Positions 6,642 through 26,188 of a DNA stretch of 32,000 nt are shown piece after piece. The DNA comes from Candidatus Saccharimonadota bacterium. GTDB lineage: Bacteria; Patescibacteriota; Patescibacteriia; 2-12-FULL-60-25. The notes beneath the pieces are model-generated. The model was not told the DNA's origin, searched no databases, and was given only the letters and a program-made list of their open reading frames with translations. A program made the position numbers and the translations under genes. Within the stretch, counting starts at the first letter, position 1. Each line of letters begins with the position of its first letter. The stretch spans positions 540,001-572,000 of the forward strand of contig JALHOH010000001.1 of NCBI GenBank assembly GCA_022843095.1, in the 5' to 3' direction.

Positions 6642-6657
6642 GAACGTGGTACACTGA
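6642..6657 (+). promoter_or_regulatory. Extended -10 promoter-like motif GAACGTGGTACACTGA upstream of the giant-protein operon
   Basis: TGg-TACACT (6648-6655) ends 4 nt before the ATG at 6660 and 16 nt before the ATG at 6672. A near-identical motif recurs at 26163-26180. Confidence 0.35.
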
Positions 6658-6659
6658 GC

Positions 6660-7400
6660 ATGCGGCATCCTATGCCTTTTGCACCACGCGAACGCATGCG
6701 CGAGTGGTGGGATTGCCTCACGGGCGAACAAAAATTCGCCGTGGGGGTATTTGCCGTTTTTGGAACGGCAACATTAGTGCTCTCCTATCAGTTTGTTCGT
6801 CTGCAGATTCAAGCTCCATTTACGGCCACGATCGCGTCCGTTCAAGGGCAGGATCGTACGTTTTTGGAGGACGAAGAATCGGTGGCGAAGAAGGAGCGAG
6901 CGCGCGACACGGATCAAGATGGTTTGAACGATTATCTTGAGAAGAACACGTATCGTACATCGATCTATCTTCGAGATACGGACTCTGATGGGATCCCTGA
7001 TGCCATCGAAGTGGCGCGCGGATCAGATCCGCTTTGCCCAGAAGGCAAGCCCTGCGCGCTACCGTTGAACGTGGATGGGGTAGCAACCTACACCACAAGC
7101 AGTGCCATGCTTCAAGATTTGGTCCAAACGCGTGATGTTCCGTTTATTGAGTCTGCGATGGGGGGTGGGTCTTCTACCCAAGGCGCATTGGATTTCCTTT
7201 CGTCGCCTCCTGATCCATCCACGATGAATGCGGCGCAGGTCCGTGCCTATTTGGTAGAGAATAATTTGGTCCGCGCCGATCAGATTCAAGGCGTTTCCGA
7301 TGCAGACATCCTTTCCATTTATCGATCCAGTTATAACGAAGTCGTTCGTTCGCAGGCGACGCCGAATGCGGTGTCCACTCCCGCTCTTCCAACCCCATAA
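6660..7400 (+). CDS. Membrane-anchored protein with thrombospondin type-3-like Ca-binding repeats
   Basis: One TM helix (FAVGVFAVFGTATLVLSYQFV). Two DxDxDGxxDxxE motifs are present: DTDQDGLNDYLE (6906-6941) and DTDSDGIPDAIE (6975-7007). The stop lies 5 nt before the giant ORF. The start is ambiguous between 6660 and 6672. Confidence 0.7.
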   Translation: MRHPMPFAPRERMREWWDCLTGEQKFAVGVFAVFGTATLVLSYQFVRLQIQAPFTATIASVQGQDRTFLEDEESVAKKERARDTDQDGLNDYLEKNTYRTSIYLRDTDSDGIPDAIEVARGSDPLCPEGKPCALPLNVDGVATYTTSSAMLQDLVQTRDVPFIESAMGGGSSTQGALDFLSSPPDPSTMNAAQVRAYLVENNLVRADQIQGVSDADILSIYRSSYNEVVRSQATPNAVSTPALPTP

Positions 7401-7405
7401 CTTCT

Positions 7406-10400
7406 ATGTTGCGCGCACTCCAACGTTTTTTTCGGACCGGTCTTGTGACCGTGGTCCTTGCGACCCTGGTGGCAAGTCCGCTCACGGTCGCGGCACAAGC
7501 ATCGCAAACCGGTGCCCCCATCAACCTACCGGCAACGGGGGCGGGATTTCCGGTGGTGCTCGTTGGAGGCGATCTGCATCGACTTGCGGAAAATGCCTAT
7601 GGATCCGTTTGGACCAACATCACGCGCGCGGTGTTGGTGGCATTTTTTAACGGAGCCCAGTTGTTTTTTGGACAATTAGCCTACGATGCCGCGAATGCGA
7701 TTGCGACGGCCGGAACGGGGCAGCAGCCGGTGTTTTACAAAAAAGGGTTCGATAATTATATCCGCGATGTGGCGGCGGATGCGGCGGGTGATTTCATGGG
7801 GTCGCTTTCGAATGAGCAGTTTTTCCGCACCCTAGGATTCAATCTTTGTCGTCCTTCGACAGGTGATCGTGGCCTGCTTCGGATTCAGATGTCTCTCGGG
7901 AACTTCTTCCCGGGACTGCAGGGGCGTTTTGAACGGCCACGGCCGCGTTGTGAATGGCAGCAGGTGGTTTCAAATTGGAATACGTTTGGAACGACGCTCT
8001 CACAGACCGACGTTTTTAAGGCGGTTGATTTTAGCTTTAATCCGAACGCAAACGACATTGGAATTGCGACCGGGATTTTTAACTTTAGCGCCGCTTCCGT
8101 TCAGGAGAAATTGACGGCGCAGCTGCTACAGCGTCAGGAAGGTCGTGGGATTCGCTCGGTTTCGAACATCATTACCGGGGATATTCGTACGCCGGCAGAT
8201 CTGGTTCGTGAATCGACTGCAGAATCCGTAATTCGTCAGCCAAATGCGACGCAGCGAGAACTGGTGGGAGCGGTTTTCACAACCGGGATGCAACAGGGGG
8301 CGCTTCAGTTGTTGCAATACACGGCGTCCATGTTTGTGAATACGCTTGCAAGCAAGCTCATGCGGCGTGTGTTTGAGACGGGGGTAGCAGGGAATATCGA
8401 TCTTCCACGTTCTGTTGCGTCACCGGATGTGATCACAACGGCTGGGAAAACAGATGTGCGCAATGCGAACATCGATTTGCGGACCCCGAATTTGTTCCGT
8501 GTTGCGACCTTTGATGCCATGGCGGACTTGGTGGCCTGTCCAGAAAATTCACGCGGCACCTGGAACTGTGTCATGGATCAATCCCTTGCACAGGCGCTTC
8601 AGAAACAGGGAGAGCAAGGCGCGATGACCATTCGAGAGGCGATGGAGCGGAATTATTTGCACGGGGACTGGCGCCTGATTCCATCAACAAAGGTGCGTGA
8701 AAACACCGATCCGTTGTGCCACACCTATGCGTACTGTGCGGGGAACCTGGCGAAGCTTCGCATGCTCCGCGTGTTGCCGGTGGGGTTGGAATTTGCAGCG
8801 AATAGCCCAGAAAACATCTCGCGATGTGCGAGTGCGCAAGGGTGTGTGACGTTGCGTGAAGTGGTGCAGGGGTTCCAAGACTGTGAAAATGGTGCTCGCT
8901 CGGCTTCAAAGCAATGGTGTCATTTAGTGGATCCGAACTGGGTGATCACGCTTCCGCAACAGCAATGCGCCATGAAGGGTTATAGCGATGTGTTGCTTAC
9001 ATCCCAGCTTGGGCAGCGCAAAGAAGAATGTTCGGACGTTCAAACGTGCTTGAAGCGCAATGATCGTGGGGAGTGTGTTGGAGGGTACGGCTATTGTGTG
9101 GCGGAAAAAACGGTCTATCGGTTTGGAGCAGATGAATGTCCGGCGCAATTTAATTCCTGCCGTCAGTACAAGTCGCGTTCAGGTGCGACGGTGGGCTATT
9201 TGCGAACAACGTTGGATTTTGGTCAGTGTTCTGCAGAAAACGCCGGGTGTATGTGGTATGCGACAGAGCGCGTCGCGACGACGGCGGGTGCGTGGGTTGG
9301 TACGACGACCACAGGGCCTCGTGTGTATCTTGATAAGACGATGGAATCTTGCTCCGCGCAGGATGATGGGTGTACGCAGGTACGCCGCGTGGCGATTGGG
9401 GAGCCGGCGTTGAATTTGGTGCCGAATAGTTCGTTTGAGAATCTCACGACGGATACTCCAGCGCAGCAGAGCGCGTGGCGCTGGTCTGCCGGTGGTGTGG
9501 ACGTGACGCGCGCCTATCGCGAACCGGTGGTCGCATCCGGACCGACGTTTGTGCATGGGACCAAGGCGCAGGAACTGACCACGGAATCAGAGGTCGCGTA
9601 TCAATTGTTGCGTGTCGGAGGCGAGCGAGTGTACACGTTGTCTGCGTATATTCGTGCAAAAAATGCGGCGCGCACGGCGACCTTCCGGGCGGTGTTGAAT
9701 GAGCATGAAGACGTGAGTGGGACAGATGCCATTCGTCGGGATGACGGTGGTCCGATGGGGCGCTTGTACCGCAGTCCGGGTTGTACAGTCTCTGCCGTGG
9801 ATCGAACGGCGCGAATTGGCGTGGATAACGGAACGGGCGCATATGATTCCTGGACGCGTGTTCAGTGTTCGTTCTTGACGACGAGCTCTACGCGCGCCGG
9901 GACGTTGTCGTTGCTTGGACGGGATATGTTGGTTGATGCGGTTGAGTTGGAAGAATCTGAATTCCCAACGGAATACGTAGAATCGATGGCAGAAGATTTG
10001 GCCGTCACGCACATCAAGCTTCCACCGGAAGAATTGCGTTGCACGGGCGCCGCAGGGGAACCCGGGGCGTGTGCGAATTTTGCGCGCGTGTGTCGCCAGG
10101 CGGATGCGGGGTGTGATCAGTACACGGATCGCGAAACCACAGAGCAGGTAAATGCGGTTGCCACCACCAACGACCTGTGTCCGGCGACCTGTGCTGGGTA
10201 TGCTGAATATCGCAAAATGGCCTCCTCATTTGACCTAGTTCGCGATTTGGATGGCCGATTTGATGATCCGGAAGATGCTTCCAGCACCTTCATGATTCCG
10301 AGTCGTGGGGAATTGTGCCGCGCCGAAGAGGTGGGATGTGAAGAATTTACGAATGTCGAATCCGCGGGGACCGGGGGCGAGCAAAAAGCGTACTTTACCT

Positions 10401-13400
10401 ACACACGCTCGTGCCGGAAGCCGGGACCAGATGCTACCACCTACTTCACGTGGGAAGGATCGGATGTCGCGGGCTACCAGCTGCGCAGTTATTCCTTGGT
10501 GCGTGCCGACGCGGGGACGGCGCCAAGAATCGTGATCAAGCGTCAGCCGGGAGACCTCTACTACAAAGAGCCGACCGAATGTAATGCGCGTTCGTGGGCG
10601 CGACAGGATGACCCGGATTGTCGCCAATTCTACGATGCGAATGGAACGACGTATTACCGCTATTTGTCCCAGACCGTTTTGTCGACGCCTGCGTGTCAGA
10701 CGTTCCGTTTGGCGATCACGAACCGTGCAGACTGTGAGAAGACGGACGGACAGTACAATGCCGGTGCAAATGAATGTTTGTACCAGGTGTTTGTGCCGGA
10801 ATCGCAGTCCTGTCGTGCGCAGGCGGCCGGATGTCGTGCCTATGCGGGTGCGCGTGCGGGGAATGCGCAATCGTTGTTGTCGCAGACCTTCCGCTCAGCC
10901 ACGGGGACGTTCGTGGGAGGTCGCCTTTCAAACGAATCGTTAATTTTCGGAGATCAATCGCTTCGGGTTGATGTTGCGGCGGGACGCGAAGCAGAAGCGG
11001 CGGTGCCGGTGCTTGGCACGAACGAAAATGAGCTGTACCAGGTGACGTTCTACGCCAAGGCGGTGAATCCGGCGACCGTCGAAGTGCGTGCGGTGAATCG
11101 CGATGGCGGATCGGAAAATAATCTTATCAACACCGTTTCACTGAGCCCTGACTGGCAGCGATTTACGGTCGGTCCGTTTAAGGGGATCATGGGTGAAGCA
11201 ACCACGACCCTTGCGTTCCGGGTGACGTCGCGACCTGCGGGTCAGGTGGTGTTCTTGGATGAAGTCAATGTCGTCGGGTTGCAGGACGTCGTCTACGCGT
11301 TAGAAGACAGCTGGACGGTGCCTGCCGAATGTAATCGGACGCAGTCTGGTGCCGAATTGCCGCAAGCCATGCTTGGGTGCCGGGCGTACACGAATCGCAA
11401 CAACCAAGAGGTTCATCTGAAGTCGTTCTCTCGGTTGTGCCGCGCGAACGCGGTTGGCTGTACGGCCTTCATTGATACGCGTAACTCTGCTTCGCCGTAC
11501 GCGCAGTCCTTTACTCGTGGAGATTCCCCGGCCGGATCGTTGGGGTATCCGACGGCGACCACCACGCGTTTGGGTGATCGGTATGTGTACGTGATTGATG
11601 ATCCAGCAAAGCGCTGCCGCGCCGAAAACGCGAGCTGCCGTGCCTTTGGGAAGCCGGTGTTTACGGCAGACCGTCAGAATATCCAGGACTTCCAAACCGT
11701 GTATTTGAAGGATGACATCACGAAATATGAAGCGGGATTGTGTAAGCCATCTGAGTTGTTCTGTGAAGAGTTTGAGGCAAAGGGAGGGAAGGAATACTTC
11801 CGTGATCCGCAGAATCATGCCTGTGAATATCGAACGGACGTCCAAAACGTCCCTGGATTCGCTGCGTCCACCAAGTATTCCGGGTGGTTCGTGAAGGGGA
11901 CTCCGGCAACGCCGTGCTATCCGAACCTCTTGGTGGGGGGCGGATCGTTCAACGTGGCATTGCGTGGTGACCGTGATTACGCGGGTTGGGGGGCAACGTG
12001 TGGTCAGCAATATGCGGAATGTACCGAATTCCGCGACACGAATGACAAGGATCGCTTGTATCCGTCCGGTCGTCCGTATTACTTCTTGAAGAACGAGAAG
12101 ATGGACACGCAGTCATGTAATGGACAGGTGGATCCGGCAAAGGGCTGTATCCTGATGCGCGACACCACGAATCAAACGGTGAATTACAGCACGCAGGCGT
12201 CGTATAAGAAATTCGAGAGTGCAGGTTCGAATAACCCGGTTTCGCCGATGAACTGCTCAGGCGGCGGTGAAGGGTGTCCGACGACGCGTGTGTGTCGTGG
12301 AACGATTACGTCTTTTGCGGCATATAACCAAACGCGTGGATTCGGAATTGGTGCACCGACCGTGTCCTCGAACCAGACATATGGATCCTGTACGAGCGAT
12401 GCGGACTGTGTCGCAACGGAGGTCACGAATTGCGCGGTGGTCGGAGCGGCGGAATTTGGTGCAAATCCTGGAGAAACGGTGTGTCGCACCTGGCGTCGGA
12501 CGAACGGAACCTGTCAGGCTCCCGTGCCGTTTAACGATGCGAACTTGATTGTGAAGGCGAAGATCGATCGTGATTGTGCGCAGTGGCTTGGGTGTTCGAC
12601 GGCAGAAACGGTGCTGGATCCGGCGACAAACCGCTACACGGACATCTGTACAAACCTCGCGCTTTGCGATGAAACCAGTAAGTCAGAAAATGATATCTTC
12701 TGTGCCCACTATGTCGATCGTTCGTCTACGACGACCGAACCGATCATGACGCGTGGTGCTTTCTTCGACATCAACCGATACGTCGGTCGTCAGGTAGGCC
12801 TTGGGCAAAAGGATTACACGGGTTACGCCATCCCGAACGCGTTCCAGGTGCCGGATTTTCAGACGCGACGTGTCGGAGTGGAGGCGAGTTCAGAGGATCG
12901 TGAGGCGGAATATAAGTACCGTCTAGCCTTGGATTATCGCTTGGTTGCGGCCGTCCCGATTCGAAACGCCAAGACGAATCTTGCCGCGGGTGCCGTTGAA
13001 GGACGATTGGTGTACGAAAGTCGTCGGAATCCAGGTCCGGATGAAGCGGTCATCATCCGCCGTGACGCAGCAGGAGACCTTGGCCGACGCTATCCGTTGC
13101 TAGACCTCTGTCGTCATGTCGCGACCGGTCGAGTGGGGTACTTTAACGCGAAGGATATCGATCCAGTATTGAGCAAGGATATCAATTGTTACTTGCCCGT
13201 TCGGGATACCAAGTCTTCGCCGACGGCCGTGGATAACTTGGATTTCCAGAACCTCTATCAGAAGTTCGCATTGGAAAATCCGAATGCGGATCGTGAGTTG
13301 ATGCGTGGGTACCCGGGAGCGGAATGTCGCGCGAATCCGGAATCTGATTCCCCGTTCCAGGCATCGTTTGTCACGGGATGGAATGATTCGGTTGTTCCTC

Positions 13401-16400
13401 CAAAGGCGACGGGTAAACAGCGTGGATACCAGGCGGCGAATACCTGTGAAAAAGGAGAAGACTGTTCCTGTACGTATAAGCGCGTTGAATACTTGGGAGC
13501 GGTGACAAGTAAGTTCTACAACTCGTTGTCCGAAAACATCCCACCAGGGTTGTGTCAGGGGGGACCGCGGGATGGGCAGATCTGTTTGCCGGAATCGGTA
13601 TACCGCGCTCCGTCCGCGGCAGATGCGTCGACGCCAGAAGGACAGGCGCGTGCAGCTGCGATTGCAGAGGCAAATGCAAAATACACCTGTGGCCCGTTAG
13701 AGGGGGGCGGCCGTTGCGTCCCATTTAGCCGTGTGACGTTGGTCCGCGGGATCTTTGGGCAGTGTCTGGAGCGGGACGTCACACGTTCACTTGGCGATGA
13801 CCAGGGGAATTATCCATGTCTGACGTGGAATCCAACGCCGATCCTGTTCGGTGACAAGGATAACTTCCACTATGATCCGCGCACCGGATATCAGCCGCCG
13901 CAGAACTCAGGACAGTACTATTGTTTGTCGCAAACGCGCGCCCCGTCATCGATTCGGTTGAACAATACGCACTTCCATGCGACGCCGTATGCGGGGGCGA
14001 TCAGCAAGTTGGATTACAGCGAAGATTACGTGCGCGGCAATGACATCTGTAGTTTGGTGTTGAACACCTGTACCCAAAACAAGCCTGGGTCGTACTTGGA
14101 CGACTCATCGCGCCGGCCGGAAGATACACCAAACTTCAATGATTGTAAGGAAGCGGCTGGGTTCCAGCGGTATCAGTCAACAAAGGAAGATGCGTCCGCG
14201 CTGCGTCTCATCAACACGGGACGGTACTCGGACAAGTCGTACACCGAAACATTCTTCAAGATTAATCCGCAGCGGTTTACAGATTTGCTTCAGGCGGGTG
14301 CAGCCGTGGGTTCTGAGCGTCAGGACTTGGCGACGCGTGATACGACTATCAGTTACCTCAAGATTTCCGCGATGGGAAATCCGAACGGAACGGGACGCCT
14401 TGCCTGTGGATACCAGTCAGATTGGGTGGATGGTATCGAATCTCCGGACTACGGAAATGAAGAGCAGTTGAAGGCGGCCGAACGGCAGTGGCGTGAAAAG
14501 TTTGAGCAGGAGTTCAAGGGGATCATCGCGCGCGGCACGGAGAAATTCTTGGCCACCAGCGATGGAAATGGCGCGCCGTTCCTCTTGAACTGTGTCGATA
14601 CGGCAGACGCGGGAGTCAGTACAAGTCGTGATCAGAAGTGTTTCTTCAAGACGTGGGAGGTGGGGTACCGAGCACAGTCGCAACGCGCGTTCATCGCTCC
14701 ATACGAGATCAACTCAAGCGGTGAGATCAATCGAGAGTCGATCCTGAATACGTCGACGCCGGCCGAAGATGATGACTTCACCTTCGAACGTCTGCGCGCG
14801 GAGCCGTACTACGCCTCGTGTGATGCGGATAAGCCATACTTCTCGATTCGTGCCGTGTTCCAGGCAAAGGCGAAAAAGAATGCGGGTGGCAATTGGATCA
14901 CCCCGACGAACACGAATGCGATCGAGACCCCATGGAACTTGGTTGGGTTCTGGGTGACGACCTGTGGAGGGAAGGCGAATGACTATCGGTGGATGTATGT
15001 CCATGTGGATGTGAATGCCGCGGATACCTGTCGTGAACTCGCCGAGGTCCGCAGCAAGGATTCCCGCGACAATGCCGCATTTACGGATCGTGTGTGGAAA
15101 GAATCTGGATTCGTAGTGCCAGAACTTGGGATCCAATACGGTGAGCGGTATGCGCCATTCTCGAGCGCGTTGAACGTCAAACCGGCCGGAAAAGATCCGT
15201 TGTTCATGACCGGAGGAGAATACGTGTCGCTCTCATCACAGGATGCGTCATTCATCGGATCTGGATACCGCACCTTCTTTAACCAGAAGGGGGCCGGCGT
15301 CCCGCCACGTGATCAATGGGCAAACCTGTCGAACCTGTTCGCACGTATTTACCGGGTGTATCAGTTCAACGAACAGCCGATCACAGCATCGGATAAGATC
15401 TGTGTGAATCAGGGAAGGTTGGCTGGGAAAAAGTGCGATACGAATACGCAGTGCCAAATTCAGGGTCAGTGTCAGCAGTCGGCGATCACCGAGACAGAAC
15501 GCAAGTCGCTGAAATTCTGTAACGCGCTTTCGGGGATCAACGCCGGGCTTCCGTGTAATGCGACAAGCGATCAAAACGACTTGTGTCACCAGGCGCCGCT
15601 TGCCCGCGACAGCGCTTCTGGTGACTATCAGCCGCTGCGTGAAGCCTGCAAGGTGAATCTGGCCGCCGGGTGGTCGAAGGCGGGAAATGGCTATACGAAT
15701 GCGCGGTTAACCGGAGAAGATGCGCGTCGCACCTTTGAAACGCGCGATGCCGCCTCCAGAGGAGCGTTCGTATGTGACAGCGGTTCGTTGCGCGCCGGTC
15801 AGCCGTGTAGCGCCGAAGCGACGGAAAGCACGCAATGTCCGACAAAGGTGACCGGGAAATGCGTGAAGCCGAATGTGTATTGTCTGAATTCATTACGTGG
15901 AGGGAGTAAGTACACAGGAAGTGTGACGTTCGAACAAGGGCGTTGCTCCATCACGGGATCATCAAAGGCGATCGCCGCGTTGAAGGCAGAACGCCAGCCG
16001 GATCTGATCCCCGTTCCGTCCGAAGTGTCTGCAAGACTTGGTATCAGATGCGCGGCAGGGGAAACGCCGTATTACTCCTTCGATGATCTGACGCTCAGCG
16101 TGTGGCAAAATGGGAGCGAAATCCAGTATCGCCAGCAGCACAACTTGGTCGGAGCAGAGCACGCGGGATGTTTCCAGGATACGGATTGCAACTTTGACGA
16201 ATGGAACATGTGGAGCACGGAAAACGTGCCGTACCTGAAGAGAAATACTGGTGCGTCGGAACGGAGCGCGGCGAATGATCGGTTCTATACCGAAGATGTG
16301 GGTGGGTATCTTTGGGGGCCAATTTACTCTGTTCGGTCAGCGGTTAACCGTGAGCGTACAGAGCTACCAGGACAGCCATCAGCACTCCGAACATGTCTTG

Positions 16401-18862
16401 TCGCACATGATGAATCGGGGAGTCGGTGGATCAATCCGACCCCTGGATCGGCAAATATCTCCTTGTGTCTTGGAGCGATACCGATGAACAAGGCGCAATT
16501 ACAGGGCGGATATCCAGGATATGGGACGGGGAATTGTACATTAGGGGGTGGATCAGGATGTCCGGGGCCTCATCTATATGGTCCGGTGGGAAGTCTTTCC
16601 GGAAGATTAGTGGCTACGGTGTGGAATAGTGACGCTTCTCGACCGGGGTTATGGCCAAGGAATTTCACCTACCAGTACGACACGATTCCAGGATCTAATC
16701 CGCCGCAGCCCATCTGTCAGACCGGGGCGGGAGGAGCTCAGGTTCCGCCAACGGATGAGCAGCGGGATGCGGGATTCACCTGCGCGCCGCAAAACTGGCG
16801 ACGAGTAGACCTAGACAACCGCCTGCCGTTCTTGCGCCATCGGGATGAGCTCATTCGGGCACCGGGAGTTGGGGAAGCTGGGAAGGGGAAGCCTAACGCG
16901 TCAAATATTCGTACAGCAGTTACACGTGCTCCTCTGACGAGTACTGATAACAATGGAACGGATGACGGCAACTTCTACCTGAACCTTGCAAAATGTGAAG
17001 CTGTGGACGACATGGCAAAGGTGATGGAAGCGCCGAGCGTCGAAGGATTTAACAAATCAGGTTCTATCCTTGCGACGGACGGAGGGACATCGAATCATTA
17101 CGGTCGTTGTGCAGGTGGGGTAAACGAAGGAAGATTATGCCGCGTTTCGGATAATGCAACCGTTTCGGGCGGGTCCGCGACACAGCGATTTGTTCCTTCA
17201 GTAAGTACGGAGAGCCCCTACTCCTGTGATGTCCCGAATGCGACGCCGCAAGAACGAACGGGATCGTGTGTGAACGTAACGGATGTCAGTAACACATCGA
17301 TTCGTGCACGATGCTTTGCCCCGGGAACGAGTCCGACGGCAGCGCAAGCGTCGGATCCAGAGTTCAACTTCTGTCTGCGTCCAGCCGGATACACGCCGCG
17401 GATTGATCTGTGCGCCAATCCGGAAGATGAGTACTGTGGATTGTTCGCCTTCAATCCCGCAAGTCGCGAATCGTATGATCCGCGTGGAACGGCACCGCTT
17501 CCGACGGACGTGACGGTCGGGCACTACACGCCGCTGTTCCTTGGAAATACCGACTTTGCCGCAAAGGATTATCGACATGTGGCGTACTACACGCCTAAGC
17601 CTCCACGCATCGCCGCTCCGGATATCCGGAACTGTGCATCGCCGGGGCAATGTCCGATCCTGAGTCTGGACAAATTCTCCTTGGATGGTTCGACGGAAGG
17701 GGTGACGACAGTGGTGGGCGGTCAGCATAAATCGACGGTGCGGTTTTATGCCTGGGCCGCGCACGATCAAATGCCGCTTCGTCGTCTCGTGATGGATTGG
17801 GGGGATGGGAAGCGTCTGGAATTGCCGGACGCCAAACTCAAGAACCACAAGCCATTCTGCGGCGTTCAAAAGGAATGTTGGTTGGATCCCGTCCGTGGTC
17901 ATACCGGTCTTACCTGCAGCACGGATGTGGATTGTCCGCCGGGTGGAGGAACCTGTCAGCCGATCGGAACCTGTGCACGTCGACCACATGTGAGTTGTCG
18001 CATGGATGACGATTGTACGGAGGGGGTTGGTCCGACGGCGCAACGGGATACCTGTAAAGTCCGCACGTTCTTTGGCAACAACGCAGACGCCTGTGAAGAC
18101 AACTACTTCGAGTTCACCCATGCATATTCCTGCACGGCGCGCTCGGCGAGTTTGCTTCCACGGTGTGACGCGCCAGAGAATACGGCGACCGTTCCTTCGG
18201 ATGTCCAGGCTGGACGCTGTTACTTCGGGGCGCAGGATCAGTTCTTCATGGACGGACCGTTCTCGGGCGGACGTCCGGCTTGTACCACAAATGACGACTG
18301 TGGCCGGTTGTACTCCAATAATGGAGGACCGGATCAGCCGTCGGACGTGGGGGTGATCTGTGGGGTGCCAACCACCGCCGGTCGACCAGCAACGCCGATC
18401 CTTGGCCGCTGTTCGCGAGATACCTCGCGCGCCTGCGATCCGAGCCGACCTGCGACGACGCAATGCGCTGCAGGAGACAGCTGTGTCGCCACCATCCTTG
18501 CACCGCCAGGAGGGTGCTGGGACGCCACGGCGCAGTCCTGTCGCTTCACTCCACGCATAATCCTCGAAGACAACTGGGGATGGTGTACGGGGGAATGTCG
18601 TGACACGCTCGCCGGAGGAAACGTCGTAAACTCCGCCAGCGCATCCGTCCGCCATCCGAACGGCGGATGCTATGCGGGGCAGCCGCTCTTGGCGACGAGC
18701 GATGAATCGAAGGTGAAGAGAAATAATCTGTTAGGTGCTTCAAGTGGAAGTGAGTTGGTACCGATCAGAAGTCAATGTGAAGCGGTAAATCCTAACCCAG
18801 ATCTTCCAAGTAATCGTCCTTGGATGGTCTATCAAGGATCCCTGCTCTTGCGAGCACGGTAG
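7406..18862 (+). CDS. Giant secreted cysteine-rich surface protein (3818 aa) with jelly-roll CBM-like and PKD-like modules
   Basis: An uninterrupted 11,457-nt ORF. It has a Sec-type signal peptide (MLRALQRFFRTGLVTVVLATLVASPLTVAAQA). Two modules resemble CBM_4_9: one opens with NLVPNSSFENL, and the other contains YQVTFYAKAV...VVFLDEVNV. A DWGDG PKD-like segment lies near the C-terminus. Cysteines are dense throughout and there is no C-terminal TM. Confidence 0.85.
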   Translation: MLRALQRFFRTGLVTVVLATLVASPLTVAAQASQTGAPINLPATGAGFPVVLVGGDLHRLAENAYGSVWTNITRAVLVAFFNGAQLFFGQLAYDAANAIATAGTGQQPVFYKKGFDNYIRDVAADAAGDFMGSLSNEQFFRTLGFNLCRPSTGDRGLLRIQMSLGNFFPGLQGRFERPRPRCEWQQVVSNWNTFGTTLSQTDVFKAVDFSFNPNANDIGIATGIFNFSAASVQEKLTAQLLQRQEGRGIRSVSNIITGDIRTPADLVRESTAESVIRQPNATQRELVGAVFTTGMQQGALQLLQYTASMFVNTLASKLMRRVFETGVAGNIDLPRSVASPDVITTAGKTDVRNANIDLRTPNLFRVATFDAMADLVACPENSRGTWNCVMDQSLAQALQKQGEQGAMTIREAMERNYLHGDWRLIPSTKVRENTDPLCHTYAYCAGNLAKLRMLRVLPVGLEFAANSPENISRCASAQGCVTLREVVQGFQDCENGARSASKQWCHLVDPNWVITLPQQQCAMKGYSDVLLTSQLGQRKEECSDVQTCLKRNDRGECVGGYGYCVAEKTVYRFGADECPAQFNSCRQYKSRSGATVGYLRTTLDFGQCSAENAGCMWYATERVATTAGAWVGTTTTGPRVYLDKTMESCSAQDDGCTQVRRVAIGEPALNLVPNSSFENLTTDTPAQQSAWRWSAGGVDVTRAYREPVVASGPTFVHGTKAQELTTESEVAYQLLRVGGERVYTLSAYIRAKNAARTATFRAVLNEHEDVSGTDAIRRDDGGPMGRLYRSPGCTVSAVDRTARIGVDNGTGAYDSWTRVQCSFLTTSSTRAGTLSLLGRDMLVDAVELEESEFPTEYVESMAEDLAVTHIKLPPEELRCTGAAGEPGACANFARVCRQADAGCDQYTDRETTEQVNAVATTNDLCPATCAGYAEYRKMASSFDLVRDLDGRFDDPEDASSTFMIPSRGELCRAEEVGCEEFTNVESAGTGGEQKAYFTYTRSCRKPGPDATTYFTWEGSDVAGYQLRSYSLVRADAGTAPRIVIKRQPGDLYYKEPTECNARSWARQDDPDCRQFYDANGTTYYRYLSQTVLSTPACQTFRLAITNRADCEKTDGQYNAGANECLYQVFVPESQSCRAQAAGCRAYAGARAGNAQSLLSQTFRSATGTFVGGRLSNESLIFGDQSLRVDVAAGREAEAAVPVLGTNENELYQVTFYAKAVNPATVEVRAVNRDGGSENNLINTVSLSPDWQRFTVGPFKGIMGEATTTLAFRVTSRPAGQVVFLDEVNVVGLQDVVYALEDSWTVPAECNRTQSGAELPQAMLGCRAYTNRNNQEVHLKSFSRLCRANAVGCTAFIDTRNSASPYAQSFTRGDSPAGSLGYPTATTTRLGDRYVYVIDDPAKRCRAENASCRAFGKPVFTADRQNIQDFQTVYLKDDITKYEAGLCKPSELFCEEFEAKGGKEYFRDPQNHACEYRTDVQNVPGFAASTKYSGWFVKGTPATPCYPNLLVGGGSFNVALRGDRDYAGWGATCGQQYAECTEFRDTNDKDRLYPSGRPYYFLKNEKMDTQSCNGQVDPAKGCILMRDTTNQTVNYSTQASYKKFESAGSNNPVSPMNCSGGGEGCPTTRVCRGTITSFAAYNQTRGFGIGAPTVSSNQTYGSCTSDADCVATEVTNCAVVGAAEFGANPGETVCRTWRRTNGTCQAPVPFNDANLIVKAKIDRDCAQWLGCSTAETVLDPATNRYTDICTNLALCDETSKSENDIFCAHYVDRSSTTTEPIMTRGAFFDINRYVGRQVGLGQKDYTGYAIPNAFQVPDFQTRRVGVEASSEDREAEYKYRLALDYRLVAAVPIRNAKTNLAAGAVEGRLVYESRRNPGPDEAVIIRRDAAGDLGRRYPLLDLCRHVATGRVGYFNAKDIDPVLSKDINCYLPVRDTKSSPTAVDNLDFQNLYQKFALENPNADRELMRGYPGAECRANPESDSPFQASFVTGWNDSVVPPKATGKQRGYQAANTCEKGEDCSCTYKRVEYLGAVTSKFYNSLSENIPPGLCQGGPRDGQICLPESVYRAPSAADASTPEGQARAAAIAEANAKYTCGPLEGGGRCVPFSRVTLVRGIFGQCLERDVTRSLGDDQGNYPCLTWNPTPILFGDKDNFHYDPRTGYQPPQNSGQYYCLSQTRAPSSIRLNNTHFHATPYAGAISKLDYSEDYVRGNDICSLVLNTCTQNKPGSYLDDSSRRPEDTPNFNDCKEAAGFQRYQSTKEDASALRLINTGRYSDKSYTETFFKINPQRFTDLLQAGAAVGSERQDLATRDTTISYLKISAMGNPNGTGRLACGYQSDWVDGIESPDYGNEEQLKAAERQWREKFEQEFKGIIARGTEKFLATSDGNGAPFLLNCVDTADAGVSTSRDQKCFFKTWEVGYRAQSQRAFIAPYEINSSGEINRESILNTSTPAEDDDFTFERLRAEPYYASCDADKPYFSIRAVFQAKAKKNAGGNWITPTNTNAIETPWNLVGFWVTTCGGKANDYRWMYVHVDVNAADTCRELAEVRSKDSRDNAAFTDRVWKESGFVVPELGIQYGERYAPFSSALNVKPAGKDPLFMTGGEYVSLSSQDASFIGSGYRTFFNQKGAGVPPRDQWANLSNLFARIYRVYQFNEQPITASDKICVNQGRLAGKKCDTNTQCQIQGQCQQSAITETERKSLKFCNALSGINAGLPCNATSDQNDLCHQAPLARDSASGDYQPLREACKVNLAAGWSKAGNGYTNARLTGEDARRTFETRDAASRGAFVCDSGSLRAGQPCSAEATESTQCPTKVTGKCVKPNVYCLNSLRGGSKYTGSVTFEQGRCSITGSSKAIAALKAERQPDLIPVPSEVSARLGIRCAAGETPYYSFDDLTLSVWQNGSEIQYRQQHNLVGAEHAGCFQDTDCNFDEWNMWSTENVPYLKRNTGASERSAANDRFYTEDVGGYLWGPIYSVRSAVNRERTELPGQPSALRTCLVAHDESGSRWINPTPGSANISLCLGAIPMNKAQLQGGYPGYGTGNCTLGGGSGCPGPHLYGPVGSLSGRLVATVWNSDASRPGLWPRNFTYQYDTIPGSNPPQPICQTGAGGAQVPPTDEQRDAGFTCAPQNWRRVDLDNRLPFLRHRDELIRAPGVGEAGKGKPNASNIRTAVTRAPLTSTDNNGTDDGNFYLNLAKCEAVDDMAKVMEAPSVEGFNKSGSILATDGGTSNHYGRCAGGVNEGRLCRVSDNATVSGGSATQRFVPSVSTESPYSCDVPNATPQERTGSCVNVTDVSNTSIRARCFAPGTSPTAAQASDPEFNFCLRPAGYTPRIDLCANPEDEYCGLFAFNPASRESYDPRGTAPLPTDVTVGHYTPLFLGNTDFAAKDYRHVAYYTPKPPRIAAPDIRNCASPGQCPILSLDKFSLDGSTEGVTTVVGGQHKSTVRFYAWAAHDQMPLRRLVMDWGDGKRLELPDAKLKNHKPFCGVQKECWLDPVRGHTGLTCSTDVDCPPGGGTCQPIGTCARRPHVSCRMDDDCTEGVGPTAQRDTCKVRTFFGNNADACEDNYFEFTHAYSCTARSASLLPRCDAPENTATVPSDVQAGRCYFGAQDQFFMDGPFSGGRPACTTNDDCGRLYSNNGGPDQPSDVGVICGVPTTAGRPATPILGRCSRDTSRACDPSRPATTQCAAGDSCVATILAPPGGCWDATAQSCRFTPRIILEDNWGWCTGECRDTLAGGNVVNSASASVRHPNGGCYAGQPLLATSDESKVKRNNLLGASSGSELVPIRSQCEAVNPNPDLPSNRPWMVYQGSLLLRAR
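9137..12031 (+). repeat. Protein-level repeats of a C-x6-C-x2-[FY] cysteine motif inside the giant ORF
   Basis: At least ten copies are readable: CPAQFNSCRQY, CSAENAGCMWY, CRQADAGCDQY, CRAEEVGCEEF, CRAQAAGCRAY, CRANAVGCTAF, CRAENASCRAF, CKPSELFCEEF, CGQQYAECTEF and the variant CSAQDDGCTQV. Confidence 0.6.
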
Positions 18863-18900
18863 GAAACATAAACACCCCATGCACGGGGTGTTTATGTTTC
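18863..18900 (+). terminator. Perfect 16-bp palindromic hairpin immediately after the giant ORF stop
   Basis: gaaacataaacacccc (18863-18878), loop atgcac, then ggggtgtttatgtttc (18885-18900). It starts 1 nt after the TAG stop. The 3' arm is T-rich, but there is no clean T run after it. Confidence 0.6.
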
Positions 18901-18922: not shown

Positions 18923-18951
18923 AAAAAACCCGACCTGTCGAGAAGGTCGGG
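18923..18951 (-). terminator. Rho-independent terminator of the island lipoprotein gene
   Basis: cccgacc (18929-18935) pairs with ggtcggg (18945-18951), and the hairpin is followed on the - strand by a T run (aaaaaa at 18923-18928 on the + strand). It lies 22 nt from the stop at 18973. Confidence 0.7.
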
Positions 18952-18972: not shown

Positions 18973-19728
18973 TCAGCGCCGAGCGCCGAGCCAGGCCATG
19001 CGATGCATGACGTCTGGGATGGCGCCAGGGCTCATCGGGTCCGTTCCTACGGAGTAGTTCCGGATCGTCACGGCATAGCCGGTTGCATCCACCTCCCACA
19101 CGGAGGTCCTGAGCATGTTTCCCATCTGTTGGGAAAGTCCGACATTGCAGTAGACCTTGCGACCCACGCAGGCGCAACCGTTTTCTCCGCCCGGCACTGT
19201 CCAGCCGAATTGGAGTACGCCACTGAGTGTACCGACACTGAGCGCAACAGTTTCTCGCCCCATGTACGACCATCGTCCGCCGATCAACGTCTCTTCGACG
19301 TCGCAGGGCGCGGCCATGATGCCACGAGGAAGGTGTGGCGAGCAACGAGTGCCCGCGACCGGATCGCAGCTCATCGCAGCGCGGCAGCTGGCCTCCAGAT
19401 CTGCCATCTCGCAAAGTCGAGGAAGTTCGCTGACCGGCATCACCGGGCAGCTGCAGGTTGCGGCGCCGCGGCAGAGCGGATTATCGGGGTTCTGGTAGGC
19501 CACACAGGTGCCGCCCATCATCCCGCTGTCCATTCGGGCGTCAGGCCCGGGCTGAACCACGTCGGGTCCAGGGGTCGTCATGCCGTCGGGCTCGCCACCG
19601 GCGTCCGCCATCATCATGGCGTCCGGTCCGGGGGTCGTGCCTTCGTCAGGCATGTTCATGGGCTGGCCACAAGCTCCGGAGAGGAGGGCCAGCCCAAGAA
19701 GCGCGAAAAACACAAACCATCGCTTCAT
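18973..19728 (-). CDS. Secreted, probably lipidated, Cys-rich hypothetical protein
   Basis: Signal peptide ending in a lipobox-like LLSGAC (MKRWFVFFALLGLALLSGACGQP). A low-complexity PD/AG/MM linker is followed by a Cys-rich domain. A canonical SD, AAGGAGAG, lies 5 nt upstream of the ATG. GC3 is high. Confidence 0.7.
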   Translation of the reverse strand: MKRWFVFFALLGLALLSGACGQPMNMPDEGTTPGPDAMMMADAGGEPDGMTTPGPDVVQPGPDARMDSGMMGGTCVAYQNPDNPLCRGAATCSCPVMPVSELPRLCEMADLEASCRAAMSCDPVAGTRCSPHLPRGIMAAPCDVEETLIGGRWSYMGRETVALSVGTLSGVLQFGWTVPGGENGCACVGRKVYCNVGLSQQMGNMLRTSVWEVDATGYAVTIRNYSVGTDPMSPGAIPDVMHRMAWLGARR

Positions 19729-19850
19729 TGGGTCTCTCCTTGTTCAGTTGTGAGGTGCTCCTCAACAACCACGTTTCTAGTGTATCGAACGGCTAAAACC
19801 TAAGCAAAGGGATGTGGATAAGTCAAGGGAGGGGGGAGGTTCACATGTAT

Positions 19851-19880
19851 AAAAAAATCCCCTCGGAAGATTCCGAGGGG
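19851..19880 (-). terminator. Rho-independent terminator of the 19902..20789 gene
   Basis: cccctcgg (19859-19866) pairs with ccgagggg (19873-19880) around loop aagatt. The hairpin is followed on the - strand by a T run (aaaaaaa at 19851-19857 on the + strand). Confidence 0.75.
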
Positions 19881-19901
19881 GTGCGCGAGGACCGCGCGAC
19901 T

Positions 19902-20789
19902 TCAGCTCTGCTGCTTCGCGTCCGTCCCTGCGCTCCGAATCTGGAGCTTCTTCTGGGCGAGCGGGAAGATCTCGCTGTAGGGCGTCATCATGACACCCAT
20001 AACGTCGCTCGCGTCCAGCTTCCGCTCCACGCCGTGCTCGAGCGGCTTGGCGATGGCGCGGCAGAAGGCGCGCTTCCCGAGGTCGACGATCGTGTCGGCC
20101 TGGTCCTTCTTGAACTTGCAGCTGTCCACGAACTCGTGGGCCGTCGGCAGGACGGGGATCGGCTCGATGCCGAGGTCGCGCGCCGCCGCCTCGACCCCGA
20201 CGATGAAGTGCTTGCGCACCTCCGAGTTGGCCAGCCGACCGCGCGACGTCGTCGGCGCTTCCTTGGTCGTGACCGGCCACTGCATGGTCCGGACGCGGTC
20301 GCGAAACGACTTCTTCCACACCTTGTCCTTGAGCAGATCGCCGGGATCCTGGTGCACGAGGAGGAGGACGAGAAGAGCCTCGCCCCTCATCACCTGGGTC
20401 AGCTCCGTCTGGTGCGCCGAGGAGAGCTTTTCGGCGTCCAGAACCACGACGATGGGGCGCGGATCCGCAGTCTCCAAGCGGTTGAGGGTGCCCGCGTCCT
20501 TCGCGTAGATCGTCTCGACCGATCGCTGCAGGAACTGTCCCAGCAGCACGAGCCCGTTCTTCACGTTCACGAGCTCCTCCGGCGTGCAGTGGAGCGCCGT
20601 CATCTCGTGGCGGAACTCGGGGCGATTGAGCCTGTCCGCGAGACCCTTGCAGGTCATCACCTGCGGCAGGGTCAGGCAGTACTTCTCCGCCTCGCGACGT
20701 CGCTCCTCGTTCCCGGACTTGGGCTTCGACGCCACATCCGCCAGAACATCCGTCGCCATCGTTCCCATCGTCGTTGCCTGGATCGTCAT
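19902..20789 (-). CDS. Hypothetical protein, high-GC island gene (about 295 aa, family not recognised)
   Basis: This is the only frame in the region with balanced amino-acid composition and near-saturated G/C at third codon positions. I prefer the ATG at 20789 (MTIQATTMGT...) over the TTG at 20840. It contains a Walker-B-like PIVVVLDAEKL segment but no Walker A motif. Confidence 0.55.
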   Translation of the reverse strand: MTIQATTMGTMATDVLADVASKPKSGNEERRREAEKYCLTLPQVMTCKGLADRLNRPEFRHEMTALHCTPEELVNVKNGLVLLGQFLQRSVETIYAKDAGTLNRLETADPRPIVVVLDAEKLSSAHQTELTQVMRGEALLVLLLVHQDPGDLLKDKVWKKSFRDRVRTMQWPVTTKEAPTTSRGRLANSEVRKHFIVGVEAAARDLGIEPIPVLPTAHEFVDSCKFKKDQADTIVDLGKRAFCRAIAKPLEHGVERKLDASDVMGVMMTPYSEIFPLAQKKLQIRSAGTDAKQQS

Positions 20790-20953
20790 TTCCTTGTTCA
20801 CCTGTCTTGAAAGAACCACCACGTTGGAGCCCGTCTCCAACCACCGGCTTTTTGGGAAAAGCGTTGGTTACCATACGGATTTTACGCAGAATTGTCAAGT
20901 ATCTGTGTGCACGGCTTGACCCCCCGGTGCTTCGCGCGTATCCTTGCACTATT

Positions 20954-20998
20954 GACCTGTTCTGGATGGACAGGTCTTTCTTTTTCCTCATTTTTTCT
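20954..20998 (+). promoter_or_regulatory. Terminator-like hairpin plus T tract abutting the nusA start codon (candidate attenuator)
   Basis: gacctgt (20954-20960) pairs with acaggtc (20970-20976) around a 9-nt loop. It is followed by tttctttttcctcattttttct, which runs straight into the ATG at 20999. Confidence 0.35.
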
Positions 20999-22315
20999 AT
21001 GGCATCACCCATCTCGCTTGCGATGAAGCAGATCGCGGAAGAAAAGAACATTCCGTATCCGTCCGTTTTGGAGACCGTTGAATCCGCGCTTGCGGCGGCA
21101 TACCGCAAAGATTTCGGGAACAAGAACCAAAATATCAAGGTGGAGTTTGATCCGGAAAAATACGATGGCATGACCGGCGGCATTCGTGTATTTGATGTCA
21201 AAACCGTGGTGGAAGACATGGAATTGCCGGAGGATTATGCGGAACAGTTGGAAGCGGCGGCAGCTGCAGAAGCGGCAAAGCGTCGAGAGGATCGCAAAAA
21301 GGGGATTGTGACTCCGCGCCCGGCGGACACGGACTTGCCAACCGAAGGGGAATTCAAGTTCAACCCAAAAACGATGGTGATGATTTCTGACGCCCGCGAC
21401 TTAAAACCGGACGCGGCGATCGGGGAGGAGATTCGTGTGGAATTGTCCGTCCCGGCAGCATTTGGACGCATGGCGGCACAAACGGCAAAACAGGTGATTC
21501 TGCAAAAACTCCGCGAAGCAGAACGTGGCGTGATTTTTAGTGATTTCAAGGGTCGTGAAGGGGAGCTTATGAACGTCACGGTGCAGCGCCGTGAAGGACG
21601 TTTGGTGTTGATTGACCTGGGTCGTGCAACGGGAATCATGATCCCGGAAGACCAGATCGAAACCGAGCGCTATTTTCCAGGGACGCGGATCAAGGCGTTG
21701 CTGCGTGAAGTTGCGATGACGACCAAGGGGCCGGAAATCCGGTTGTCTCGCACGGCGCCGGCATTGGTTGGCGCATTGTTTGCACAGGAAATTCCGGAAA
21801 TCGCAAACGGTGTCGTCGAGATCCGGGAAATTGCGCGTGAAGCGGGGAGTCGTACCAAGGTTGCGGTGTCCTCCACGGACGAGCAGATCGACCCGATTGG
21901 GAGCTGTATCGGACAGCGTGGGACGCGTATTCAGTCGGTCATCCGTGAATTGGGCGGCGAAAAAGTGGATGTGATCGAGTTCTCGGAAGACGCTTCGACG
22001 TTTATCGCCGCGTCGCTTGCGCCAGCAAAAGTTTTGCGCGTGGAATTGGACGAGGATGAACACTTGGCGCGCGTATCGGTCGCGTCAGATCAGCTGTCGC
22101 TCGCGATCGGTAAAGGCGGGCAAAACGTCCGTTTGGCGGCAAAATTGACCGGGTGGAAAATCACGATTTTGGAGGAAGGTGGGAAGGCGGTTTCCGTGGA
22201 CGAAGTGGGTGTTCCGGCGGCGGACGCGACGTCCGATGTTCCGGAGACGGCGGCAGAAGCGGATGCGAAGGATGAAGACGTCTCACATCCGGTAGAGGCG
22301 ACGCCCGCATCCTAA
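20999..22315 (+). CDS. nusA: Transcription termination/antitermination factor NusA
   Basis: N-terminal domain (KQIAEEKNIPYPSVLETVESALAAAYRK), an S1 region, and two KH domains (IGSCIGQRGTRIQSVIRELGGEKVDVI and LSLAIGKGGQNVRLAAKLTGWKITI), followed by an acidic tail. I chose the ATG at 20999 because the upstream extension to 20774 crosses the island boundary and looks non-coding. Confidence 0.92.
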   Translation: MASPISLAMKQIAEEKNIPYPSVLETVESALAAAYRKDFGNKNQNIKVEFDPEKYDGMTGGIRVFDVKTVVEDMELPEDYAEQLEAAAAAEAAKRREDRKKGIVTPRPADTDLPTEGEFKFNPKTMVMISDARDLKPDAAIGEEIRVELSVPAAFGRMAAQTAKQVILQKLREAERGVIFSDFKGREGELMNVTVQRREGRLVLIDLGRATGIMIPEDQIETERYFPGTRIKALLREVAMTTKGPEIRLSRTAPALVGALFAQEIPEIANGVVEIREIAREAGSRTKVAVSSTDEQIDPIGSCIGQRGTRIQSVIRELGGEKVDVIEFSEDASTFIAASLAPAKVLRVELDEDEHLARVSVASDQLSLAIGKGGQNVRLAAKLTGWKITILEEGGKAVSVDEVGVPAADATSDVPETAAEADAKDEDVSHPVEATPAS

Positions 22316-26090: not shown

Positions 26091-26103
26091 GCGTTCTACA
26101 AAA

Positions 26104-26134
26104 AACACGGGCACATCGCCCGTGTTTGCGTTTT
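26104..26134 (+). terminator. Rho-independent terminator after secF
   Basis: aacacgggc (26104-26112) pairs with gcccgtgtt (26118-26126) in a 9-bp stem with loop acatc, followed by tgcgtttt. Confidence 0.75.
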
Positions 26135-26162
26135 CACACAGGACCGCCTACCGTCCAAAGAC

Positions 26163-26180
26163 GAACGTGTGGTACACTGA
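26163..26180 (+). promoter_or_regulatory. Extended -10 promoter-like motif GAACGTGTGGTACACTGA upstream of the T4CP-like operon
   Basis: TGg-TACACT (26170-26178) ends 10 nt before the ATG at 26189. It shares 16 of 18 positions with the motif at 6642-6657. Confidence 0.35.
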
Positions 26181-26188
26181 TCCCATCC

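Follow-up and report, generated by a model that had tools for sequence, protein, structure and literature searches.

The window analyzed in this work is a stretch of 32,000 nt of contig JALHOH010000001.1 from a Candidatus Saccharimonadota bacterium; positions are counted from its first letter, and coordinates given without a strand refer to the plus strand. The open reading frames (ORFs) were read by translation, scanned against Pfam and NCBIfam, and searched for transmembrane segments by a hydropathy scan. Two adjacent genes are the subject of the analysis: a small one (6660..7400), coding for a single-pass membrane protein of 246 amino acids (aa) with a predicted ectodomain outside, and a giant one (7406..18862), an intact ORF coding for a protein of 3818 aa with 148 Cys. 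The two ORFs are separated by 5 nt and the giant one occupies 35.8% of the window, so that the original prediction of a two-gene layout, with one intact ORF exceeding a third of the window, is confirmed by the coordinates. The public annotation places the start of the small gene at its second ATG (6672), which shortens the product to 242 aa. According to our best reading, the pair represents an envelope module conserved in Patescibacteria of the ABY1 type (Uhrbacteria, Falkowbacteria, Magasanikbacteria, and their relatives).

A scan of one genome per GTDB species retrieved 55 loci with a homolog of the giant gene; the presence of the small gene was checked by tblastn, on a total of 58 loci, and four more distant cases were looked up separately. 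At every one of the 58 loci having readable upstream DNA, a homolog of the small gene lies immediately upstream of the giant one and on the same strand; in L057, the one apparent exception, the small gene is present and interrupted by a masked run of N. The four more distant giant homologs are paired in the same way, and the proposal that the two genes are conserved neighbors is borne out, no giant gene with readable upstream DNA lacking the small one. The intergenic gap has a median of 8 nt (range 1–45, 53 loci), one locus was found per genome, and searches started from the small protein also land beside giants. The surroundings of the pair differ among lineages: the gene order is Trx-TrxR-(GDH)-VanW-HSP20-pair in the Uhrbacteria type, VanW-HSP20-pair-NusA-YidC in genomes of the same type and in a more distant member of 4463 aa, and (Sua5/LeuRS)-KsgA-pair in the Falkowbacteria, Magasanikbacteria, and other types. 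Since the linkage between the small and the giant gene outlasts the loss of all other synteny, it represents the strongest evidence for a functional partnership between the two products.

The family is large. An exhaustive profile search, covering 1.84 billion cluster representatives, retrieved 1440 representatives of the giant family at E ≤ 1e-3 and 1071 at E ≤ 1e-30; most of them have 2600–4460 aa, and neither Pfam nor NCBIfam has a model for them. Among the best 150 of the 1440, 116 are full-length (2563–4463 aa, median 3108), with a median Cys content of 4.2% and a hydrophobic N-terminus in 111 out of 116. The names on the matches are Candidatus Uhrbacteria, Falkowbacteria, Magasanikbacteria, and “Patescibacteria group”. 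A search of open-access papers and bioRxiv retrieved no account of the giant family or of its pairing with a TSP3 partner, and only a general observation on the Candidate Phyla Radiation (CPR) (PMC4736985). Many records of metagenome-assembled genomes with this locus have other names, namely “uncultured Gammaproteobacteria bacterium” in the case of L004, L006, L008, and some 30 more loci, and “Gallionella sp.” in that of L026; because these records carry the same CPR-type synteny and gene content, we take the labels as generic or mis-binned. A word-indexed protein search with N-terminal queries (single or as a 50-sequence profile) gave only five truncated relatives (≤1092 aa), and this route seems to miss very long proteins.

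An ORF of this size might be an assembly artifact or a decaying pseudogene that stays open by chance, and five related loci (L002, L006, L022, L023, and L043), in which the homolog is split or frameshifted, speak in favor of such an origin; in L002, four frame changes fall between the window-equivalent aa 875 and 1222. These split homologs might be due to either assembly error or gene decay. On the other side, a single intact giant ORF was found in about 30 of the 55 loci/species, i.e., in independent assemblies (3047–3755 aa in the Uhrbacteria type and 2619–2821 aa in the Falkowbacteria type). The translation is identical to a public protein (P0006) from a 683,555-bp NCBI contig, of which the gene represents about 1.7%, and in a separate read-set assembly, which also harbors the small gene, the initial 193 aa of the giant are 99.5% identical. 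Furthermore, the ratio of nonsynonymous to synonymous substitution rates (dN/dS), computed according to Nei-Gojobori in windows of 150 codons for two close species pairs (92% aa identity, windowed dS 0.2–2.1), is 0.00–0.10 in all windows over the whole length and in both pairs; the giant gene therefore encodes a protein constrained end to end. An origin by frameshift or assembly collapse, the danger foreseen for this ORF from the beginning, can be regarded as effectively refuted.

The alignments of 54 and 30 homologs of the small protein revealed the following order of elements: a transmembrane helix, an invariant Pro, an acidic linker, two TSP3-type loops, a C-P-x-G-x-x-C loop, a variable low-complexity linker, and a helical-looking motif. 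The transmembrane helix (6732..6800, aa 25–47) is the single hydrophobic segment of the protein; it is preceded by an Arg-rich N-terminus and followed, just beyond the membrane, by the invariant Pro (P53), which belongs to a “PF” motif (30-homolog alignment). The two TSP3-type loops (6906..7010, aa 83–94 and 106–117) carry the DxDxDGxxDxxE motif at a distance of 23 aa; in its strict form, the motif is present twice, 23 aa apart, in 40 out of 53 homologs, once in 12, and is absent from one, and the columns of the Asp ligands are invariant in the 30-homolog alignment. The protein matches the Pfam family TSP3_bac (PF18884) in two stretches (E 5.4e-8, 33 bits, cutoff 25), and the same family was detected in the small partner from L046. 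The small transmembrane protein with two such motifs that had been proposed is thus recovered by both hydropathy and Pfam. Judging from their acidic ligand pattern, the loops are predicted Ca2+-binding sites.

Both Cys of the C-P-x-G-x-x-C loop (7035..7055, aa 126–132) are invariant in the alignments. The C-terminal motif (7215..7337, about 35–40 aa, LRxxLxxxGxxxxxxLxxxxDxxL) has a helical-looking pattern, is duplicated in two homologs, and is a candidate docking element. In the profile search against PDB it had no match; the Ca-binding loops alone matched, with a biofilm-associated surface protein (7c7r/7c7u), polcalcins, and an OmpA-family protein. Another ORF of the window (31302..32000, continuing past the window end) shows by eye several TSP3-type repeats (DVDGLLDEWE, DTDGDGYADREE, DKDGLNDRLE, and DTDGDSFQDGLE), followed in the translation by the L,D-transpeptidase catalytic motif ...HGIHE...SHGCVRL.

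As for the giant protein, its one hydrophobic segment (aa 8–32) falls within a Sec-type signal peptide (7406..7501, aa 1–32), and the hydropathy scan revealed no later transmembrane-like stretch. The signal peptide has the features of type I: an Arg-rich n-region (R3, R7, and R10), a hydrophobic core (aa 11–29, Kyte-Doolittle (KD) values up to 2.0), and the A-Q-A end (aa 30–32), an AxA-type end being present in five out of six aligned sequences. Export by Sec and cleavage after A-Q-A would be expected from these features. No LPXTG with a hydrophobic segment and a basic tail behind it is present at the C-terminus, according to both the sequence check and the hydropathy scan; these data agree with the original prediction of a protein endowed with a signal peptide and devoid of transmembrane segments and of a recognizable wall anchor. 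The LPATG found at aa 41–45 was dismissed as a sortase signal, being N-terminal and not conserved. Whole and tiled Pfam scans retrieved neither HemolysinCabind nor Ig-like families, which are features of the adhesins of the RTX/type I secretion system (T1SS) kind; the giant has an N-terminal Sec signal instead.

Cys represents about 3.9% of the residues, and just two of the 148 are located in the first 370 aa, in agreement with the Cys-poor N-terminal region previously described. Cys also dominates the invariant columns of the 29 full-length sequences (about 70), where Gly, Trp, and Tyr are frequent, too; this pattern would fit a disulfide-stabilized extracellular protein. The Cys-rich repeat of Myxococcus (TIGR04201) was not detected (E 0.17, 12 bits vs. 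a cutoff of 25). The conservation profile reveals a core common to all clades (aa 50–1600); the rest is clade-dependent or variable up to a conserved C-terminus.

Neither the whole giant protein nor any of its ten tiles of 480 aa gave a significant match with a Pfam or NCBIfam model. Structures were modeled with AlphaFold2 (AF2) for aa 1–700 (43 sequences) and aa 560–1620, i.e., for 1761 of the 3818 residues. The N-terminal region contains a Cys-poor, strongly conserved helical domain (7574..8380, aa 57–325), which AF2 predicts as long helices with a predicted local distance difference test (pLDDT) of 55–80 and which bears the motifs AYDAANYIASGGKGQ and YTASxFLNTL. Two of its conserved helices are hydrophobic (aa 75–93 and 298–320); they were rejected as a membrane anchor, their median KD19 (about 1.0–1.1) being below the transmembrane range. 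A Cys-rich alpha/beta domain follows (8513..9085, aa 370–560), and its model is confident (pLDDT 85–97). Foldseek found for the aa 1–700 model no match with E < 0.7 in PDB or in a viral structure library.

The core beta-rich region (9083..12265, aa 560–1620), shared by all clades, contains two jelly rolls and small disulfide-stapled beta modules; its AF2 model is almost all beta, with a mean pLDDT of 81.3 and a predicted template modeling score (pTM) of 0.67. Foldseek retrieved 194 PDB matches at E ≤ 1e-3. The matches that superpose well are single carbohydrate-binding modules (CBMs), namely CBM22 (4xuo, template modeling (TM) score 0.65), CBM16 (2zey, 0.71), and CBM4 (1gui, 0.58), all with a probability of 1.00, and CBM61 as well (range 0.57–0.71 on the target); these values belong to the whole aa 560–1620 model and are not assigned to either jelly roll. 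Module 1 (9473..10015, aa 690–870) and module 2 (10853..11341, aa 1150–1312) are mutually homologous according to hhalign (probability 92%, E 7.6e-7); hhalign found no third copy elsewhere in the giant. Module 2 is matched, in the search with the family profile, by the CBM4 of laminarinase 16A (1gui, E 2.3e-6), the sole match among all PDB sequences, phmmer included. The CBM4/CBM22/CBM16 type of jelly roll is recovered by Foldseek and by the family profile, and these modules may bind carbohydrates. Between aa 578 and 1542 (9137..12031), the motif C-x6-C-x2-[FYW] occurs nine times vs. 0.5 expected from shuffles, each time after a stretch resembling a beta-strand, and it marks the small beta modules that separate the two jelly rolls. 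It might be the signature of a small hairpin module, stapled by a disulfide, that Pfam does not describe.

The middle region (12503..15355, aa 1700–2650) is conserved in the Uhrbacteria type and partly in the Falkowbacteria type, and neither the Pfam/NCBIfam tiles nor the PDB profile search recognized a domain in it. The statement that most of the giant resembles nothing recognizable goes too far, given the two CBM4/22-like jelly rolls: of the tile and Foldseek searches suggested at the outset, the former gave nothing significant and the latter pointed to CBMs for aa 560–1620 only. An indel-rich variable region follows (15356..17305, aa 2650–3300), with the highest dN/dS of the giant, a value that is still low (0.04–0.10). 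The alignments then reveal a conserved C-terminal region (17306..18859, aa 3300–3818), with the motifs DWGDG, F-x-H-x-Y, DNWGWCTGEC, and a terminal RPW[IMV]V[YF]xG[SA]. In the C-termini of the Falkowbacteria type, the motifs WGDG...HxY...DNWG are close together and in the order of a PKD domain, which might indicate a PKD domain with Cys-rich insertions. The identification was not upheld, no Pfam match with E ≤ 1 being found for the window or for eight compact Falkowbacteria-type C-termini; the resemblance is therefore no more than a lead.

Foldseek also aligned the aa 560–1620 model with multi-domain proteins. Elapor1 and reelin (E 5e-10 to 7e-7) had a TM score of about 0.1 and a root-mean-square deviation (rmsd) near 40 Å, and the toxins Vip4Da2, Cry1 protoxins, CDTb, and iota Ib (E 4e-9 to 1e-4) had TM scores of 0.09–0.22 and an rmsd of more than 20 Å. 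We read these matches as probably due to shared building blocks and not to homology. Membership in the three-domain Cry, Vip, or binary-toxin B families was rejected, given the lack of global fold similarity and of any toxin match with E < 1 for the N-terminal model.

In our view, the giant might be a surface protein that binds glycans and is kept at the membrane by its small partner, the two forming an attachment or contact apparatus; we assign to this reading a probability of about 0.45. The pair would be transcribed together and probably translationally coupled. The small protein would insert as a single-pass protein with the N-terminus inside, exposing outside the two Ca2+-binding TSP3 loops, the disulfide loop, the flexible linker, and the short helical motif. 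The giant would be exported by Sec, lose its signal peptide, and fold outside as a chain of about 410 kDa of disulfide-stapled modules; its conserved Cys-poor N-terminal helical domain would dock on the small protein, perhaps on the C-terminal helical motif, so that the giant would stay at the surface. The two CBM4/22-like jelly rolls, possibly together with the variable region near the C-terminus, would bind glycans of another cell or of a polymer. The existence and conservation of the pair, the purifying selection, the export signals, the conserved Cys, and the CBM-like folds are direct results. In contrast, tethering, ligand, and adhesion are all inferred, the grounds for adhesion or host contact being the CBM-like modules and what has been proposed for other CPR proteins.

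Several data weigh against this interpretation. Pfam CBM_4_9 (PF02018) stays below its gathering score (18.2 bits vs. 25.9, E 3e-3) and matches module 2 only; CBM-like folds are also found, among the Foldseek matches, in toxins, phage baseplates, and enzymes; and about 2000 aa of the giant, not assigned to any fold, might harbor an activity of quite another kind. Moreover, the identity among full-length giants of the Uhrbacteria type (41–48%, 29-sequence alignment) is similar to that of housekeeping envelope neighbors such as VanW, and this, together with the uniform purifying selection, is unlike what an adhesin in an arms race would display. Since TSP3 repeats also seem to precede the L,D-transpeptidase of the window, they are not pair-specific in this genome, and they look like a general envelope ectodomain module of the host organism rather than a specific tether signature. 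Finally, the envelope-biogenesis genes around the pair, to which the original prediction attached importance, are indeed present in the window (VanW, which carries a peptidoglycan-binding domain, YidC, SecD, SecF, and BacA/UppP by Pfam, besides the L,D-transpeptidase motif seen by eye). Their clustering with the pair is a lineage-specific synteny of one lineage only, replaced elsewhere by a ksgA (and Sua5/LeuRS) context.

Some of these data would be explained by the main rival reading, which takes the giant for a housekeeping scaffold of the envelope and not for a device of host contact. It would be, for example, a wall- or S-layer-associated framework or spacer whose CBM-like modules bind the cell's own wall polymers and for which the small protein is the membrane link. 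A single locus per genome with a fixed place among housekeeping genes across a class-level diversity, a strong and even purifying selection over the full length, and an evolutionary rate like those of VanW and HSP20 are what such a role would lead one to expect; the apparent TSP3 repeats before the L,D-transpeptidase suggest a wall-associated module, and the VanW neighbor with its peptidoglycan-binding domain points in the same direction. However, a protein of 3818 aa with this Cys content is unlike the known S-layer or wall-scaffold proteins, the roughly 650 indel-rich residues near the C-terminus fit a variable interface better, and the VanW neighborhood is lost outside the Uhrbacteria-type lineage; on balance, we consider a scaffold unlikely, at perhaps one chance in a few. 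Clearly less probable is the idea of a lineage-wide and so far undescribed design for the host interface of ultra-small bacteria, essential for episymbiosis. In this design, non-covalent anchoring by the small TSP3 protein, dedicated to this task, would take the place of sortase/LPXTG or T1SS retention; the helical domain at the N-terminus of the giant, devoid of a known fold, and the roughly 2000 unassigned residues would together make up a new machine for contact or penetration, which would recognize host glycans via the jelly rolls.

The residues without an assigned fold (about 2000) are the reason why two other readings, both improbable, keep some weight. The giant might be a polymer-processing enzyme, secreted or surface-displayed, with the CBM4/22-like modules targeting a polysaccharide and an unrecognized catalytic domain hidden among these residues: glycoside hydrolases typically carry CBM4, CBM22, and CBM16 as accessory modules, and it is to such modules that the giant is structurally closest. 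Yet no catalytic family was retrieved by Pfam/NCBIfam in the 480-aa tiles or by the family profile against all PDB sequences, and the most conserved columns, mostly Cys, Gly, Trp, and Tyr, are not catalytic-looking, which makes an enzyme very unlikely. A toxin-like, membrane-active device, in which an N-terminal helical bundle with buried hydrophobic helices and receptor-binding beta domains would breach the host envelope as in three-domain Cry, Vip, and binary toxins, recalls the toxins listed above among the best multi-domain matches of aa 560–1620 and the long helices, two of them conserved and hydrophobic, predicted for the N-terminal domain. We hold it to be slightly more improbable still: the superpositions are poor and probably reflect shared jelly-roll/beta-sandwich units, the N-terminal model matches no toxin and its helical part has low confidence, and the conserved C-terminus and the single-copy synteny are unlike those of polymorphic toxins.

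Giant surface adhesins with an N-terminal retention module include the RTX adhesins MpIBP and LapA and, in Gram-positive bacteria, the giant Ebh. The protein described here follows a similar general logic: a single ORF encodes thousands of residues, and these comprise a conserved N-terminal part, expected to face the cell, an extended body, modules of the sugar-binding type, and a region of greater variability on the C-terminal side. Unlike them, it has a Sec signal peptide and no RTX/T1SS signal, Ig-like extender repeats, or LPXTG/sortase signal; its body is a series of unique Cys-rich domains rather than of tandem repeats, and its retention, if any, would depend on a separate small membrane protein. 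The “Giant” proteins of Apilactobacillus are further Gram-positive giant proteins (PMC12863079).

Attachment has been proposed as the role of the large extracellular Cys-rich proteins of the CPR that were described for Peribacteria (Anantharaman et al. 2016, PMC4736985); they have an average length of about 1655 aa, 7% Cys, and are encoded by a multi-gene cluster varying between strains. Our giant resembles them in the CPR host, the signal peptide, the very high Cys content, the large size, the lack of functional annotation, and the proposed role in attachment. It is set apart from them, as they are described, by being a single gene of 2600–4460 aa with about 4% Cys, a fixed synteny, a strong purifying selection, and a small TSP3 partner in all cases. 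We rate it as a giant surface or extracellular binding protein of the CPR kind, distinctive for its conserved two-gene organization and for several domains without a known fold.

The single domains can be compared with known systems as well. The modules of the giant are beta-jelly-rolls of about 150 aa like those of CBM4, CBM22, and CBM16 (1gui, 4xuo, and 2zey); they differ from the latter in staying below the Pfam score, in lying between disulfide-stapled modules, and in the absence of a recognizable glycoside hydrolase. The small protein has the same DxDxDGxxDxxE loops as the TSP3-repeat envelope proteins (PF18884; 7c7r/7c7u); unlike these, it has two loops only, is single-pass, lacks OmpA or any other known domain, bears a C-terminal helical motif peculiar to its family, and is accompanied by the giant in all cases. 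The alternation of jelly-roll/beta-sandwich units with small disulfide-rich modules is reminiscent of reelin repeats and of Elapor1-type Cys-rich ectodomains; given the superpositions reported above, the similarity concerns at best the architecture, and homology is unsupported.

CPR/Patescibacteria represent a large share of bacterial diversity, and most of them are thought to live attached to other cells; nevertheless, the molecules of the interface are almost unknown outside Saccharibacteria. The pair is thus a candidate, concrete enough to be tested, for a central structure of the envelope or of host contact in an entire class of these bacteria. The domains to be expressed are delimited (both CBM-like modules, the confident Cys-rich domain, and the N-terminal helical domain), and more than 50 paired sequences are at hand for the prediction of the complex.

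Concerning the transcription signals, a promoter-like element had been assigned to the region preceding the pair. An extended -10-like TGgTACACT was read by eye at 6647–6655, 4 nt before the first ATG, and it is a weak lead; the consensus scan found no sigma-70-like promoter on the plus strand upstream of 6660, so that this claim was not sustained. The perfect 16-bp hairpin predicted after the pair does exist (arms 18863–18878 and 18885–18900, loop ATGCAC), directly after the giant stop codon; it has a fold energy of −28.2 kcal/mol with two flanking pairs included and no clean T-run, and it is likely to act as a transcript end or stabilizer.

The genes downstream of the pair vary, and no conserved third gene was found among the compared loci. 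In the window, a convergent gene (18973..19728, minus strand) codes for a protein of 251 aa whose N-terminus resembles that of lipoproteins (LLSGAC) and whose C-terminal half is rich in Cys, and a second terminator-like hairpin (18951..18929, minus strand) serves it; small lipoprotein-like genes convergent with the giant are also present downstream of it in L046, L060, and L061, and they have no sequence similarity to one another. The part of the window with the highest GC content (19000..21000, 0.61–0.62) contains many overlapping shadow ORFs; the most plausible gene therein is 19902..20840 (minus strand, 312 aa, no Pfam match), with a terminator-like hairpin after it (19880..19859, minus strand). 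A minus-strand ORF of 480 aa (19777..21219) overlaps nusA and looks spurious.

The infB and nusA genes are often adjacent in bacteria. In the window, the C-terminal part of infB (7..1008) and nusA (20774..22315) are separated by about 20 kb including the gene pair, with nusA downstream; the listed nusA ORF has about 80 extra N-terminal residues, and its true start is probably a later one. SecD (23162..25171) contains a PPIC-type peptidyl-prolyl isomerase (rotamase) domain (aa 247–353) inserted between the P1 N-terminal and P1 head subdomains.

In the window and in the Uhrbacteria-type loci, the pair has thioredoxin and thioredoxin reductase genes upstream of it, and in a Falkowbacteria genome a gene for a DsbA-like protein with a thioredoxin fold (4179..4937 of L046, minus strand) lies upstream at a distance of about 4 kb; a link of these genes to the oxidative folding of the giant is speculative. 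Further downstream in the window, a 490-aa ORF with no Pfam match (26063..27535) precedes the gene (27557..29824) for a type IV coupling-protein ATPase of the VirD4/TrwB type, which is 755 aa long and has a C-terminal zinc-ribbon. A gene for a protein resembling the pilins of type IV secretion systems (1269..2063 of L046, minus strand) is also present near the pair.

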